Part shown: positions 24,961 to 55,390 of the stretch, one piece after another
How positions within the stretch are numbered: the first letter of the stretch is position 1
Layout: every line of letters starts with the position of its first letter
Sequence record: PZ452594.1
Strand: one strand, 5' to 3'
DNA: 64,000 bases
Source: a phage
Program-made: the position numbers and the translations under genes
Notes under the pieces: model-generated
What the model was told of the DNA's origin: nothing
Seen by the model: the letters and a program-made list of their open reading frames with translations, nothing else
Database searches by the model: none

Positions 24961-25542
24961 CTAACCAAGCTTTTTAGTTAATTCATTCCAATGTTTTCTA
25001 CACAAAGAAACATAAATTTCATCACCAATACAGATTTGATTACCTTCTTTAACTGGTGTTCCATCTTCCATTAATCGAGCTGTCATAATCGCTTTTTTAC
25101 CGCAATGACAAACTGCTTTTAGTTCAATAAGTTTATCTGCAATCGCTAAAAGTTCTTTAGAACCTTCAAACAATTTTCCAGCGAAATCAGTCCTTAATCC
25201 ATAAGCCATAACAGGAACATTATATGTATCAACAATTCGGCTCAATTGATGCACTTGTTCAGTTTTTAAAAACTGGGCTTCATCTACAAATACGCAATGA
25301 ATATCTTTTTGTGCTTCAGCCCATTTATAGAACTCGAAAATATCCATATCATCTGTGATAATATTCGCTTCCTGTTTAATTCCAATGCGAGAAACGACTT
25401 CACAGACAGAGTCGCGAGTATCAATAGCAGGCTTAAGAACTAATACACTCATTCCACGTTCTTTATAATTATGTGCAGCAGTCAAAAGAGAAGCAGATTT
25501 TCCAGCATTCATTGCTGCATAAGTAAAAATTAAACTCGCCAT
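24961..25542 (-). CDS. tk: Thymidine kinase
   Basis: 193 aa; P-loop AAMNAGKS; zinc-ribbon CHCGKK...C. Confidence 0.95.
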   Translation of the reverse strand: MASLIFTYAAMNAGKSASLLTAAHNYKERGMSVLVLKPAIDTRDSVCEVVSRIGIKQEANIITDDMDIFEFYKWAEAQKDIHCVFVDEAQFLKTEQVHQLSRIVDTYNVPVMAYGLRTDFAGKLFEGSKELLAIADKLIELKAVCHCGKKAIMTARLMEDGTPVKEGNQICIGDEIYVSLCRKHWNELTKKLG

Positions 25543-25543
25543 T

Positions 25544-25732
25544 TTAGTCCTTAGTTAAATTTTCTAAATATGTTTCTAAATCATTTTCAGCTTTATCGAT
25601 AGATTTTACTAATTCGTAATATGTTTCGGCATCTCCATAATCAGAAGATAATTCAAAAGACAAATCCTTTTCTAAACTAATAATTTCACCAACTAAAAAT
25701 AATATTTCGTTCTTTTGTTCGCGAGTAATCAT
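25544..25732 (-). CDS. Small two-helix protein, paralog family (62 aa)
   Basis: MITREQKNEILFL...DLETYLENL. Confidence 0.45.
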   Translation of the reverse strand: MITREQKNEILFLVGEIISLEKDLSFELSSDYGDAETYYELVKSIDKAENDLETYLENLTKD

Positions 25733-25914
25733 AAAGAATTTATATAATCAATGAGTTCTTGTTCTTTATTATCGAATTCTTTAGAAAGTTCTTCGTATTC
25801 ATTTGCATTAAAAGGACCGCATTCATCACAAACTTTTTCCAATTCACTGTTTTTATCCATAACTTCGTGGATAAGAGAAAAGAGTTTGTCTTTTTGTTCT
25901 TTGCTTAAACTCAT
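25729..25914 (-). CDS. Small two-helix protein, paralog family (61 aa)
   Basis: MSLSKEQKDKLFSL...ELIDYINSL. Confidence 0.45.
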   Translation of the reverse strand: MSLSKEQKDKLFSLIHEVMDKNSELEKVCDECGPFNANEYEELSKEFDNKEQELIDYINSL

Positions 25915-26084
25915 ATATTAATTTCCAAAAGTTTTAAAATAATTCGCTTTTGCTTAAATATTTCCACAGTTAAATGATCAGTATCTTTTTGACCAATTCC
26001 AATGGCAAAACCTTTATTAACAGCGAGTTCAATTAAATTATCAAGTTCACGTAACACTTCATATTGTAACTCAGAACTATTCAT
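25911..26084 (-). CDS. Small protein (57 aa), below ORF-track cutoff
   Basis: Translated by eye: MNSSELQYEVLRELDNLIEL...; ATGA coupling at both ends. Confidence 0.35.
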   Translation of the reverse strand: MNSSELQYEVLRELDNLIELAVNKGFAIGIGQKDTDHLTVEIFKQKRIILKLLEINI

Positions 26085-26293
26085 TTCGGTTTACCTTCTT
26101 TAACGAAATCTGGATAAGGATAAAATCCCGAATAAAATCCTTCACCTTTATGATTGATGCATCCTTTATTAGAACAATAGCACCAATAATCGAAATCACA
26201 AGCCATTTCATCGTTGCATAAAGCAAAAACAACCGGCCATTTACACTTTTCACAGTGGGCATTTTTAAGAATACTAGTTTGGCTCATAACCAT
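26081..26293 (-). CDS. Cysteine-rich small protein (70 aa), probable zinc binding
   Basis: Ten cysteines incl. CEKCKW and CYCSNKGC. Confidence 0.45.
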   Translation of the reverse strand: MVMSQTSILKNAHCEKCKWPVVFALCNDEMACDFDYWCYCSNKGCINHKGEGFYSGFYPYPDFVKEGKPK

Positions 26294-26511
26294 GTCACCT
26301 TTAAGCAGTATTCTTCTACATGCTGTTTACGACCTTTCTTATCAATAAAGGTATATTCAACGAATGTTCCAATGTAGTCTTTATCTACATCATGTGGACT
26401 ATTAATTGGACATTTAGTACGGCAAATGCGTTCCCATTGACGAATAATTACTGCCTTATTCTTTGGGTCATACGGATGTGGATAATGTATATTCATAATA
26501 ACGGTTCCCAA
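26284..26511 (-). CDS. Hypothetical protein (75 aa)
   Basis: ORF. Confidence 0.45.
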   Translation of the reverse strand: MGTVIMNIHYPHPYDPKNKAVIIRQWERICRTKCPINSPHDVDKDYIGTFVEYTFIDKKGRKQHVEEYCLKVTWL

Positions 26512-26960
26512 TCAACAATCACAATTTCTAATTTAGAGGAATATGTATCTAAAATCCCCTCAATAATATCCCAGTTCCCTTTACCTATGCCTGCACCAAT
26601 CCTAGGCATATAGATTGTAGGTTTAATCAGTTTATTTTCACCAAACTCATTTAATTCTAACATACAATTCATTAAAGCGGAATACTCAAAATTTGGCCCT
26701 GGTTGAAATTGAGTATAAAGGTTGAAGCAATACGCTTTATGAGTCCTAAAGTATTTTTCATAGACTGAGTAAGAACCGAGTTTAGTTACATCACCCCATT
26801 CAGTCTGTAATTTATCAGCTTCCAAAATTTTAGGGAAAGCTTTGGTTAATTGACCTGCGACTCCAGCTTTCATCGCGTGAAAACAATTACATCCATGCGC
26901 AATATTTTTACCTTCAGCGAAAAGGGCGACAATATCGCCCTTGATATATTTTACAATCAT
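26493..26960 (-). CDS. Macro-domain-like protein (candidate ADP-ribose binding/hydrolase)
   Basis: KGDIVALFAEGKNIAHGCNCFHAMKAGVAGQL and MPRIGAGIGKG resemble macro-domain motifs; by-eye only. Confidence 0.35.
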   Translation of the reverse strand: MIVKYIKGDIVALFAEGKNIAHGCNCFHAMKAGVAGQLTKAFPKILEADKLQTEWGDVTKLGSYSVYEKYFRTHKAYCFNLYTQFQPGPNFEYSALMNCMLELNEFGENKLIKPTIYMPRIGAGIGKGNWDIIEGILDTYSSKLEIVIVDWEPLL

Positions 26961-27304
26961 CTAGTACTCAATCCTCGATTATAAGAATCTACCAAACGGT
27001 CAACCATTGAATGACAAGCGGCTTTATCTTTCTCCTCCGCAACTGAACATTCTAAGGTATTCCACTTTTTAGCATATCGTTTTAATAATGTATCGTTTTT
27101 GTATCTACTTGATTTATCTCTTTCTCCGTCTTTATATGCATATATTAATTTCTGTGCAAATTCAGCTTGACATGCTTTATTTTTCCCACAATAATCTGCC
27201 GCAGTGCGGTTTACATATTCTCTAATTTCAGTATATGATGTATCTGCTGATGCAGAAGCAGAAAATGAAATTAATCCTATACATAAAACCAAAATTTTAG
27301 TCAT
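26957..27304 (-). CDS. Secreted small protein (115 aa); occupies the T4 vs position
   Basis: Signal peptide MTKILVLCIGLISFSASASA. Confidence 0.5.
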   Translation of the reverse strand: MTKILVLCIGLISFSASASADTSYTEIREYVNRTAADYCGKNKACQAEFAQKLIYAYKDGERDKSSRYKNDTLLKRYAKKWNTLECSVAEEKDKAACHSMVDRLVDSYNRGLSTR

Positions 27305-27842
27305 TTACTATTTCCAAAAGTTTATTATTTTTAAGGTAATTAGCCTTTTCTAGGACTTCAGAAGCATATTTAGAACCAGCTTTAACATTCCATCCCGAAT
27401 TATAAGAGGATATTGCTTTTCTTATATCGCCCTTATGTATATTTAACCAATAAGAAAGTTCAATGTACGCCCAGGAAGCTGAATTGGATCGTTTATTCAA
27501 CATTCTTTTTATTTCAGCATCGGTCATATTATAACCAAGTTCCTTAACTCTTGCTCGCATAGTAGGCAAATAATTTTGGAACATTCCGTAGGCGTGATGC
27601 TTTGGTTTAGATTTTAAATTAACTCCGCCAGAGCTTTCTTGCCATAAAATAGCAGCCATTATATGACCTAATCCGCTCTTGTGGATATTTTTGTGTGTTT
27701 TATATTTTCCATCCTTAGAAAATTGTTCCCCGAATTGATACGCGTAACGCATGTTATCGAGTTGGACATTACTGAAAGTATGCTCGGAGCTATGTGCCAT
27801 CATTGAAATGGCCAATAGACCAGCGAGTAGTGCTTTTCTCAT
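27297..27842 (-). CDS. Secreted lytic transglycosylase-like protein (SLT domain)
   Basis: Signal peptide; SLT core ILWQESSGG...AYGMFQ. Confidence 0.6.
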   Translation of the reverse strand: MRKALLAGLLAISMMAHSSEHTFSNVQLDNMRYAYQFGEQFSKDGKYKTHKNIHKSGLGHIMAAILWQESSGGVNLKSKPKHHAYGMFQNYLPTMRARVKELGYNMTDAEIKRMLNKRSNSASWAYIELSYWLNIHKGDIRKAISSYNSGWNVKAGSKYASEVLEKANYLKNNKLLEIVND

Positions 27843-52715: not shown

Positions 52716-53582
52716 ATGTTCATTCAAGAACCAAAGAAATTGATTGATACCGGCGAAATTGGTAACGCTTCTACTGGTGATATCTTATTCGACGGTGGTA
52801 ATAAAATTAATAGTGATTTTAACGCAATTTATAATGCGTTTGGCGATCAGCGTAAAATGGCAGTAGCAAATGGCACTGGAGCAGATGGTCAAATTATCCA
52901 TGCTACTGGATATTATCAAAAACACTCTATTACAGAGTACGCAACTCCTGTAAAAGTTGGTACTAGGCATGATATTGATACCTCTACTGTAGGTGTTAAA
53001 GTTATCATTGAAAGAGGCGAACTCGGCGACTGCGTTGAATTTATTAACTCAAATGGATCAATATCAGTTACTAATCCTTTAACAATTCAAGCTATTGATT
53101 CAATTAAAGGTGTTTCAGGTAATTTAGTAGTAACTAGCCCATATAGTAAAGTAACTTTACGCTGTATTTCATCTGATAATTCTACATCGGTTTGGAATTA
53201 TTCTATTGAAAGTATGTTTGGGCAAAAGGAATCACCAGCTGAAGGTACATGGAATATTTCTACGTCCGGATCAGTTGACATTCCATTATTTCATCGCACT
53301 GAATACAATATGGCTAAATTGCTAGTTACGTGCCAATCGGTAGATGGAAGAAAAATTAAAACAGCAGAAATAAATATTCTTGTGGATACTGTTAATTCAG
53401 AGGTCATTTCTTCTGAATATGCTGTCATGCGAGTTGGGAATGAAACCGAAGAAGACGAAATCGCTAATATTGCATTTAGTATTAAAGAAAACTATGTAAC
53501 GGCGACTATAAGTTCTTCAACTGTCGGTATGAGAGCAGCAGTTAAAGTTATCGCTACGCAGAAAATCGGGGTGGCTCAATAA
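52716..53582 (+). CDS. 9: Baseplate wedge / long-tail-fibre socket protein gp9
   Basis: 288 aa, T4 synteny and length. Confidence 0.9.
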   Translation: MFIQEPKKLIDTGEIGNASTGDILFDGGNKINSDFNAIYNAFGDQRKMAVANGTGADGQIIHATGYYQKHSITEYATPVKVGTRHDIDTSTVGVKVIIERGELGDCVEFINSNGSISVTNPLTIQAIDSIKGVSGNLVVTSPYSKVTLRCISSDNSTSVWNYSIESMFGQKESPAEGTWNISTSGSVDIPLFHRTEYNMAKLLVTCQSVDGRKIKTAEINILVDTVNSEVISSEYAVMRVGNETEEDEIANIAFSIKENYVTATISSSTVGMRAAVKVIATQKIGVAQ

Positions 53583-55390
53583 TGAAACAAAATATTAATA
53601 TCGGTAATGTTGTAGATGATGGTACCGGTGACTACCTGCGTAAAGGTGGTATAAAAATAAATGAAAACTTTGATGAGCTTTATTATGAACTCGGTGATGG
53701 AGACGTTCCATATTCAGCCGGTGCCTGGAAAACTTATGATGCTTCATCTGGGCAAACACTAAAAGCTGAATGGGGAAAATCATACGCTATTAATACCTCT
53801 TCTGGAAGAGTGACTATAAATCTTCCAAAAGGAACAGTTAATGATTACAACAAGGTAATTAGAGCTAGAGACGTATTTGCTACATGGAACGTCAACCCAG
53901 TTACTTTAGTAGCTGCTTCCGGCGATACGATTAAAGGGTCTGCAGTACCAGTTGAAATTAATGTTCAATTCAGCGATTTAGAACTAGTGTATTGTGCCCC
54001 AGGACGTTGGGAATATGTCAAAAATAAACAAATTGACAAAATTACCAGTTCAGACATTAGTAATGTAGCTCGTAAAGAATTTTTAGTCGAAGTCCAAGGA
54101 CAAACAGACTTTTTAGATGTTTTCCGTGGAACCAGTTATAATGTAAATAACATCAGAGTAAAACATCGTGGTAACGAATTGTATTATGGCGATGTGTTTA
54201 GCGAAAACAGTGATTTTGGCTCTCCGGGCGAAAATGAAGGAGAACTAGTTCCTCTTGATGGATTTAATATTCGATTAAGACAGCCTTGTAATATTGGTGA
54301 CACTGTTCAAATTGAAACATTTATGGATGGTGTATCGCAGTGGAGAAGTTCATATACAAGACGTCAAATTAGATTGTTAGATTCAAAATTAACGTCAAAA
54401 ACTTCTTTAGAAGGAAGCATTTACGTTACTGATTTATCAACAATGAAATCAATTCCATTTTCTGCTTTTGGATTAATTCCAGGAGAACCTATTAATCCTA
54501 ACTCTCTTGAGGTTCGTTTTAATGGAATTTTGCAGGAATTAGCTGGCACAGTTGGAATGCCATTATTTCATTGTGTTGGTGCCGATTCAGACGATGAAGT
54601 AGAATGCTCTGTTTTAGGTGGAACTTGGGAACAATCTCATACCGATTATTCAGTTGAAACTGATGAAAACGGCATACCGGAAATTTTACATTTCGATAGA
54701 GTATTTGAGCATGGTGACATTATCAATATCACCTGGTTTAATAATGATTTGGGTACATTATTAACGAAAGATGAGATTATTGATGAAACTGATAATCTCT
54801 ATGTATCGCAAGGACCAGGGGTAGATATTTCCGGTGATGTAAATTTAACAGACTTCGATAAAATTGGTTGGCCAAATGTAGAAGCAGTTCAATCTTATCA
54901 ACGCGAATTTAATGCTGTTTCAAATATCTTTGATACGATTTATCCTATTGGAACTATATATGAAAACGCTGTTAATCCAAACAACCCTGTTACATATATG
55001 GGATTTGGCTCATGGAAATTATTTGGGCAAGGAAAAGTTTTAGTTGGATGGAATGAAGATATTTCGGATCCGAATTTTGCTCTAAATAACAACGATTTAG
55101 ATTCTGGCGGAAATCCTTCGCATACTGCAGGTGGAACAGGTGGTTCTACTTCTGTTACATTGGAAAATGCTAATCTTCCTGCAACTGAAACAGATGAAGA
55201 AGTTCTAATAGTTGATGAAAATGGATCAGTCATTGTTGGTGGGTGTCAATACGATCCAGATGAATCCGGTCCAATTTACACTAAATACCGTGAAGCTAAA
55301 GCATCTACTAACTCTACTCACACTCCGCCAACATCAATAACTAACATTCAACCGTATATTACAGTTTATCGTTGGATAAGGATTGCATAA
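53582..55390 (+). CDS. 10: Baseplate wedge / short-tail-fibre attachment protein gp10
   Basis: 602 aa, T4 synteny and length. Confidence 0.9.

Follow-up and report, generated by a model that had tools for sequence, protein, structure and literature searches.

A phage DNA of 64,000 nucleotides (PZ452594.1; we refer to this whole stretch as the window) contains, in the interval between tk and vs, an open reading frame for a 155-amino acid protein, which starts with ATG and runs along the minus strand (26493..26960 in the ORF listing). An earlier note had described this frame as macro-domain-like and as a possible eraser or reader of ADP-ribose. The locus thus raises the questions of which gene this is, to which class of macrodomains its product belongs, and which type of ADP-ribosylation the protein may act upon.

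The open reading frame is tk.4 (adfM) of a Tequatrovirus

The frame is real, and both peptide segments quoted in the earlier note are present in its translation. In the window, rI, rI.1, tk, tk.1, tk.2, two small extra ORFs, tk.3, tk.4, vs, vs.1 and regB follow each other on one strand (Table 1). The 3.5 kb surrounding tk.4 share 98-99% identity with the phages RB18, RB14, SH7 and T2, with RB18 representing the best overall regional match (99.0%) and Shigella phage SH7 matching at 98.7%. These identities define the window as a Tequatrovirus genome and the ORF as tk.4. The encoded protein is equal in length to T4 Tk.4, aligns with it from end to end, and is identical in 152 of the 155 residues (98%). 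The placement of the gene between vs and tk.3 matches that in T4 and RB18, and the overlapping start and stop codons are alike in T4. The ORF is the orthologue of T4 tk.4/adfM. The gene is already known: its macrodomain has been part of the T4 annotation for years, and a link to the DarTG2 toxin-antitoxin system was published in 2025. The T4 and RB18 database records name the product 'phosphatase; contains A1pp phosphatase motif', and other records list it as 'macro domain protein' or 'Poa1p-like family protein'.

The ATGA overlaps at the vs/tk.4 and tk.4/tk.3 junctions point to a single, translationally coupled message. Our scan for promoters and terminators between 24300 and 29200 returned 19 promoter-like sites where 18.8 are expected, and thus no excess. 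At 26922..26942, within codons 7-13 of tk.4, an inverted repeat with perfectly matching 8-bp arms (AAGGGCGA-caata-TCGCCCTT) scored terminator-like on the non-coding strand. Cells infected with T2 contain the Tk.4 protein at detectable levels, and a preprint describes an interaction of the T2 tk.4 mRNA with ArcZ, a host sRNA.

When compared to T4, the region contains a 367-nt insertion between tk.2 and tk.3 (25915-26283), which accounts for two small genes missing from T4; in RB18, the genes of this insertion are named RB32ORF109c/110c. Further upstream, the Vs.1 protein has a hydrophobic, signal-peptide-like N-terminus ahead of its SLT domain.

Table 1. Coordinates of tk.4, of its active-site elements and of neighboring genes in the window
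Feature	Coordinates	Strand	Description
tk	24961..25542	minus	from the ORF listing
tk.1 and tk.2	25544..25732 and 25729..25914	minus	tandem paralogues; DUF7438, E 5e-15 and 5e-19
57-aa ORF in insertion	25911..26084	minus	no Pfam match
70-aa Cys-rich protein in insertion	26081..26293	minus	PF23895 'Phage zinc binding domain'
tk.3	26284..26496	minus	DUF7202; downstream of tk.4, ATG overlaps tk.4 stop (ATGA)
tk.4 / adfM	26493..26960	minus	155-aa protein, one macrodomain
Loop 2 (phosphate-binding), P119-R-I-G-A-G-I-G-K-G-N-W130	26571..26606	minus	from conservation and SCO6735 alignment
Gln84 codon	26709..26711	minus	catalytic-Lys position of DarG/TARG1; Q in 108/108 homologues
Mosaic patch on loop 1 (codons 28-35)	26856..26877	minus	window H-A-M-K-A-G-V-A, T4 H-T-M-G-S-G-V-A
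Asn25 codon	26886..26888	minus	conserved macrodomain Asn; N in 107/108 homologues
vs (valyl-tRNA synthetase modifier)	26957..27304	minus	upstream of tk.4, stop overlaps tk.4 start (ATGA)
vs.1	27297..27842	minus	annotated 'hypothetical'; SLT lytic transglycosylase domain, 25.1 bits (cut-off 21.3)

Tk.4 is a macrodomain of the TARG1/ALC1-like class

We compared the Tk.4 sequence to domain families and to proteins of known structure. The Pfam family Macro (PF01661) covers it from profile positions 2 to 113 of 118 and scores 24.3 bits (E 3.2e-5), above the gathering cut-off of 22 bits. When Tk.4 was used as single query in a phmmer search of PDB sequences, we found BT1257 (1e-8), Poa1p, SCO6735, TARG1 and DarG. 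A family profile built from 82 homologues strengthened these matches to 4e-21 for BT1257, 2e-17 for SCO6735, 3e-17 for TARG1, 4e-15 for Poa1p and 1e-14 for DarG from Mycobacterium tuberculosis, with MacroD-type and viral macrodomains scoring 1e-3 or worse. The PADLOC model for DarG likewise recognizes Tk.4 (E 1.2e-7).

An AlphaFold2 model of Tk.4 (pLDDT 95.9, pTM 0.91) folds into the three-layer alpha/beta/alpha sandwich of macrodomains. The macro-domain call of the earlier note is thus borne out by the Pfam family, by the family profile and by the predicted fold, that is, by the profile search and the structure prediction it had proposed as checks. Sequence and structure together place TARG1, DarG, Poa1p and SCO6735/BT1257 next to Tk.4, and not MacroD, PARG or the viral macrodomains; by this comparison Tk.4 is assigned to the TARG1/ALC1-like class. 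The connection to SCO6735 rests on the profile alignment and not on Foldseek, where the SCO6735 entry 5e3b is absent from the top 50 matches to the Tk.4 model.

A glutamine occupies the position of the catalytic lysine

We next turned to the active site, the positions of which were read from an alignment of 108 homologues with reference sequences. N25 aligns with the asparagine of the 'TVN' motif in DarG, with N27 in SCO6735 and with N23 of PhiKZ gp104, which is the first residue of the only stretch of gp104 aligned by BLASTP. An N23A variant is among the gp104 constructs listed for that protein (PMC13309987). Q84 is found where DarG has K80, TARG1 has K84 and PhiKZ gp104 has the lysine of its T-K motif. 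In a profile alignment to PDB 5e3b, it coincides with Gln85 of SCO6735 and with a glutamine in BT1257; Gln85 here is residue Q105 of the 5e3b chain minus an assumed 20-residue tag. The residue is embedded in an N-L-Y-T-Q-F-x-P-G motif conserved among the 108 homologues, whereas SCO6735 and BT1257 share N-M-I-G-Q-H-G. In loop 2, P119 and G122 are invariant, and G124, G128 and W130 are conserved in at least 90% of the family alignment. G33 and A35 are invariant in loop 1, whose first glycine is replaced by lysine in the window allele. The two signature segments recognized in the earlier note correspond to N25 together with loop 1 ('MKAGVA'), and to loop 2 ('PRIGAGIGKG').

Streptomyces coelicolor SCO6735 (5e3b) and Bacteroides BT1257 (2fg1/2afc) are, like Tk.4, stand-alone TARG1/ALC1-like macrodomains of the Gln type. 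SCO6735 lacks the Lys/Asp pair of TARG1 and DarG; it removes ADP-ribose linked to thymidine in DNA and confers protection against DarT (PMC9411070). Its residues H24, N27, Q85, G126 and G128, all of which have been mutated experimentally, align with H22, N25, Q84, G122 and G124 in Tk.4; the Q85A mutant is inactive, N27S is nearly inactive and G128E is impaired (PMC9411070). An activated water has been proposed to act in SCO6735, with Gln85 positioning the distal ribose (PMC9411070). The likeness has limits: sequence identity to Tk.4 is only ∼26-29%, and both reference proteins are cellular (SCO6735 being DNA-damage inducible), whereas Tk.4 is phage-encoded. K34, which contacts DNA from loop 1 of SCO6735, aligns with A32 in Tk.4 (S32 in T4), so that no lysine is present there, and the DNA-contacting K89 is part of a loop that is shorter in Tk.4.

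We considered membership in the DarG2 group and rejected it: the catalytic Lys80 is replaced by Gln84 in all 108 homologues, and Tk.4 has no C-terminal DarT-binding domain. The DarG2 macrodomains used for comparison were those from Thermus aquaticus (5m31/5m3e) and M. tuberculosis (5m3i). Consistently, the NCBIfam DarG model (NF048014, cut-off 250 bits) matches Tk.4 with 24.9 bits and in its macro part only (profile positions 2-146 of 338). There is no darT gene beside tk.4, where we find vs, vs.1 with its SLT domain, regB, tk.3 (DUF7202) and the gene for the phage zinc-binding protein. The Lys84/Asp125 dyad of human TARG1/OARD1 is likewise missing, with Q84 and G126 at the equivalent positions in Tk.4. 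The invariant Gln84, in an arrangement as found in SCO6735, makes T4-type AdfM a stand-alone "YTQ"-type macrodomain rather than a DarG derivative.

Cellular relatives are stand-alone genes

By tblastn, the tk.4 family is present in 2,733 of 50,697 phage records (∼5%), from phages infecting Escherichia, Klebsiella, Salmonella, Pseudomonas, Vibrio, Acinetobacter and Aeromonas. Among bacteria and archaea, at least 502 genome stretches encode relatives. The best 80 of these are nearly all stand-alone proteins of ∼150 amino acids, and 79 contain a Y-[TS]-Q motif. When the ORFs flanking these 80 genes were clustered, 136 ORFs were distributed over 103 clusters with no recurrent neighbor, and an occasional DarT among them is possible. 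The most populated clusters had the appearance of unrelated genes whose order is conserved within a lineage, and not of a shared partner. The stand-alone relatives and the missing recurrent neighbor point to a stand-alone cellular macrodomain, and not to a DarTG operon, as the source of the phage gene.

Phage PhiKZ encodes another single macrodomain named AdfM, gp104, which also targets DarTG2 and takes DarT2-made ADP-ribose off DNA in vitro (Cell Rep 2026, PMC13309987). Its similarity to Tk.4 is remote, with BLASTP aligning 23 residues at an E-value of 0.019 and hhalign reporting 96.8% probability at 20% identity. PhiKZ gp104 is DarG-like: it has the T-K motif where Tk.4 has a glutamine, and its PDB matches are to DarG entries only (9e-25). 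Remote homology and the DarG-like character of gp104 together indicate that the two AdfM proteins represent separate recruitments, by two phage groups, of different lineages of the same macrodomain class against the same defense.

Within a lineage, bacterial Tk.4-like genes retain their neighbors. In five Roseobacter-group genomes, both ORFs flanking the Tk.4-like gene form conserved clusters, and in seven Desulfobacter-group genomes the downstream ORF is conserved; by eye, these neighbors appear threonine-dehydratase-like, endonuclease/exonuclease/phosphatase-like and ArgC-like. Streptomyces phage Annadreamy (NC_048719.1, 82555-82977) encodes a distant Tk.4 homologue (28.6% identity) beside a gene for a Sir2 protein (NAD-dependent deacetylase), and this pair resembles the Sir2-family (SirTM)/macrodomain gene pairs. 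In OL964745.1 ('Escherichia phage T4', 159,752 bp), the tk.4 match at 53142-53586 is in two pieces, each with its own annotation as a macro-domain protein; adfM may be disrupted in this T4 stock.

Loop 1 carries a polymorphic patch

All three amino acid differences between T4 and the window protein (T29A, G31K and S32A; TMGSG in T4, AMKAG in the window) are located in loop 1. At the nucleotide level, 16 positions of the 468-nt gene differ from T4 tk.4, and 11 of them lie within 22 nt; four of these 11 changes are synonymous, and codon 31 is changed at all three bases. Clustering as tight as this did not occur once in 200,000 simulated random placements. The synonymous divergence in the patch speaks for a short tract acquired by recombination from a more distant allele, rather than for recent point mutation. 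By megablast, the K-type patch is present in ∼47 phage records including T6, AR1, RB51, RB68 and SH7, and the T4-type patch in ∼169. RB18 has the T4-type loop 1, despite being the best regional match to the window. AMKAG is found in SH7, whose protein is identical, and in an IMG/VR contig; TMKAG is found in others, and TMGAG in a group with 85% identity. From these comparisons the tk.4 region reads as a mosaic at the scale of tens of nucleotides.

Loop 1 aligns with M-G-K-G in DarG and with W-G-K-G in SCO6735 and BT1257. Residue 31 is a glycine in 85 of the 108 homologues and Lys, Ala, Asn, Asp or His in others, so that this position accepts substitution. In the alignment, K31 of the window protein adjoins the position of the SCO6735 K34 contact, being located one residue earlier.

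Tk.4 probably counteracts DarTG2

The function of T4 tk.4 has been addressed by HIDEN-SEQ, where a T4 transposon library was grown on a DarTG2-expressing host and tk.4 was the single significant hit (bioRxiv 10.1101/2025.11.20.689424). A clean knock-out made T4 sensitive to DarTG2; the new name given to the gene, adfM, stands for anti-DarT factor Macrodomain, and the experiments concern the T4 allele only (bioRxiv 10.1101/2025.11.20.689424). The test against DarT proposed in the earlier note had thus already been done by others. On plain K-12 the gene is non-essential, and it scored only in the presence of DarTG2 (bioRxiv 10.1101/2025.11.20.689424). It was previously found that T2 and T4 without AdfN, and T4 without both AdfA and AdfN, are still resistant to DarTG2 (PMC11825919). 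A further resistance factor was thus to be expected, and the tk.4 finding fits this expectation. We therefore consider it probable that the ORF in our window, as the orthologue of T4 tk.4 (adfM), encodes an anti-defense enzyme against the DarTG2 toxin-antitoxin system.

How might such an enzyme work? DarT2 would transfer ADP-ribose from NAD+ to thymidines in single-stranded phage DNA (at TNTC motifs) and thereby block replication. The small, stand-alone macrodomain would be made from a polycistronic vs-tk.4-tk.3 message and would hold the ADP-ribose in the cleft between loop 1 (residues 28-35) and loop 2 (residues 119-130), with Asn25 and the invariant Gln84 positioning the distal ribose. An activated water could then hydrolyze the N-glycosidic bond between ribose and thymine, as proposed for SCO6735, with no need for a lysine nucleophile or acid of the DarG/TARG1 kind. 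ADP-ribose would leave, and the thymidine would be intact again. We propose this Gln/water mechanism because the active-site residues of SCO6735 are kept in Tk.4 (H22, N25, Q84, G122 and G124), and by this analogy it appears to be the most likely one. A precedent for the removal of DarT2-made ADP-ribose from DNA is PhiKZ gp104, although it belongs to another macrodomain lineage. It implies that Tk.4 would be a hydrolase with ADP-ribosylated thymidine in DNA as its substrate; the authors of the HIDEN-SEQ study also state that enzymatic removal of ADP-ribose from DNA 'seems likely' (bioRxiv 10.1101/2025.11.20.689424). Against this reading, the alignment shows that the catalytic lysine of DarG and TARG1 is absent and that neither of the two DNA-contacting lysines in SCO6735 has a direct counterpart in Tk.4. 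We infer that the loop-1 allele of the window (G31K) behaves like the T4 allele, although the glycine that it exchanges for lysine is the first one of loop 1 and is shared by 85 of the 108 homologues. Uracil-linked ADP-ribose on RNA is a further adduct that TARG1-like enzymes, SCO6735 among them, can reverse (PMC13036486), which makes an additional RNA substrate conceivable for Tk.4.

Alternatively, Tk.4 might protect without any hydrolysis: it could neutralize DarT2 in a stoichiometric manner, through binding to the toxin itself or, as a 'reader', through capping of the ADP-ribosylated DNA. Catalytically dead SCO6735 (Q85A) inhibited DarT in vitro, as did DarG K80A and TARG1 K84A (PMC9411070), which makes a binding route possible; the missing DarG/TARG1 lysine and the Gly to Lys exchange in loop 1 of the window allele would agree with it. 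However, the pattern of conservation is enzyme-like, with the SCO6735 hydrolysis residues N27, Q85, G126 and G128 kept in Tk.4 and with Q84 present in 108 of 108 homologues. Moreover, the protein, 155 residues long and matched by positions 2-146 of the 338 in the DarG profile, has no extra domain akin to the C-terminal DarT-binding domain of DarG, and its relatives in bacteria likewise stand alone, with no neighboring gene that recurs. We regard a stoichiometric mode of action as improbable, and a 'reader only' role is less likely given that the residues required for catalysis by SCO6735 are conserved in Tk.4. The names found in databases suggest another activity, in which Tk.4 would clear NAD-derived small molecules, as a Poa1p-like ADP-ribose-1''-phosphate phosphatase or as an O-acetyl-ADP-ribose deacetylase, and would affect DarTG2 only in a secondary manner. 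These 'phosphatase' names are a homology transfer from yeast Poa1p, an enzyme that acts on a small-molecule phosphate ester and for which mutant structures (H23A, S30A, F152A) exist. The equivalent of Poa1p H23 is conserved as H22. The residue at the S30 position varies among the homologues (T 35, A 24, V 14, L 12), with an alanine in the window protein and a threonine in T4. No phage pathway producing Appr-1''-p is evident in the tk.4 neighborhood, and the only phenotype on record for tk.4 is the DarTG2 sensitivity of the knock-out (bioRxiv 10.1101/2025.11.20.689424). A primary role in small-molecule turnover is thus quite improbable.

Finally, Tk.4 could erase the marks set by the phage itself, namely those of Alt, ModA and ModB on host proteins or RNAylation of the ModB type, and thereby time the infection program; we judge this to be highly improbable. 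Arginine-linked ADP-ribose is reversed by ARH/DraG-type enzymes and, to our knowledge, not by TARG1-like macrodomains. T4-type phages have three ADP-ribosyltransferases, for which an eraser would be a logical partner (PMC8120803), and SCO6735 and TARG1 do remove protein-linked ADP-ribose as well (PMC9411070). Alt, ModA and ModB, however, modify arginine (PMC8120803), tk.4 is dispensable on plain K-12 and became a hit only when DarTG2 was present (bioRxiv 10.1101/2025.11.20.689424), and neither alt nor a mod gene lies next to tk.4 in the window. We rejected reversal of self-ADP-ribosylation on the basis of the linkage chemistry and the missing phenotype in the absence of DarTG2. The earlier note had envisioned an eraser of host or self ADP-ribosylation; the host part is now supported by the DarTG2-sensitive tk.4 knock-out, and nothing speaks for the self part, the reversal of Alt/ModA/ModB modification.

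Discussion

The present analysis adds three points to a known gene: a Gln-type active site, which as far as we could find is described here for the first time and which is deduced from the alignments; independence from both DarG and PhiKZ AdfM; and a polymorphic patch in loop 1. With a glutamine rather than a lysine at the catalytic position, T4-type AdfM proteins offer no counterpart to DarG-based mutants such as 'K80A'. The residues to mutate in these proteins are Q84 and N25.

The natural alleles of T-even AdfM differ precisely in the ADP-ribose-binding loop 1. TMGSG, TMGAG, TMKAG and AMKAG are found in genes that are otherwise 95-99% identical, between which they would move as a recombination patch of ∼22 nt. 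The lysine of the G31K allele stands next to the position at which SCO6735, DarG and BT1257 have their DNA-contacting loop-1 lysine. It is tempting to speculate that loop 1 is a naturally exchanged specificity module, and that the active site is the scene of a continuing arms race. We consider this unlikely at present, and put it forward as a tentative idea suggested by the sequence pattern. If it were true, the alleles would differ in efficiency or in substrate range, for example toward different DarT2 variants, or toward ADP-ribosylated uracil in RNA versus ADP-ribosylated thymine in DNA. The arms race would then take place at a Gln-type macrodomain that phages have recruited independently of DarG.

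T4 AdfN (gp30.3) offers a parallel within the same phage group: this ADP-ribosylglycohydrolase, likewise an orphan that resembles an antitoxin, undoes the damage caused by DarT (PMC11825919). It differs from AdfM in having a NADAR fold, in acting on guanosine and against DarTG1, and in giving no protection against DarTG2 (Nat Commun 2025, PMC11825919). T-even phages would thus possess two separate orphan 'antitoxin-like' erasers, with the NADAR protein AdfN directed against guanine ADP-ribosylation and the macrodomain protein AdfM directed against thymine ADP-ribosylation.
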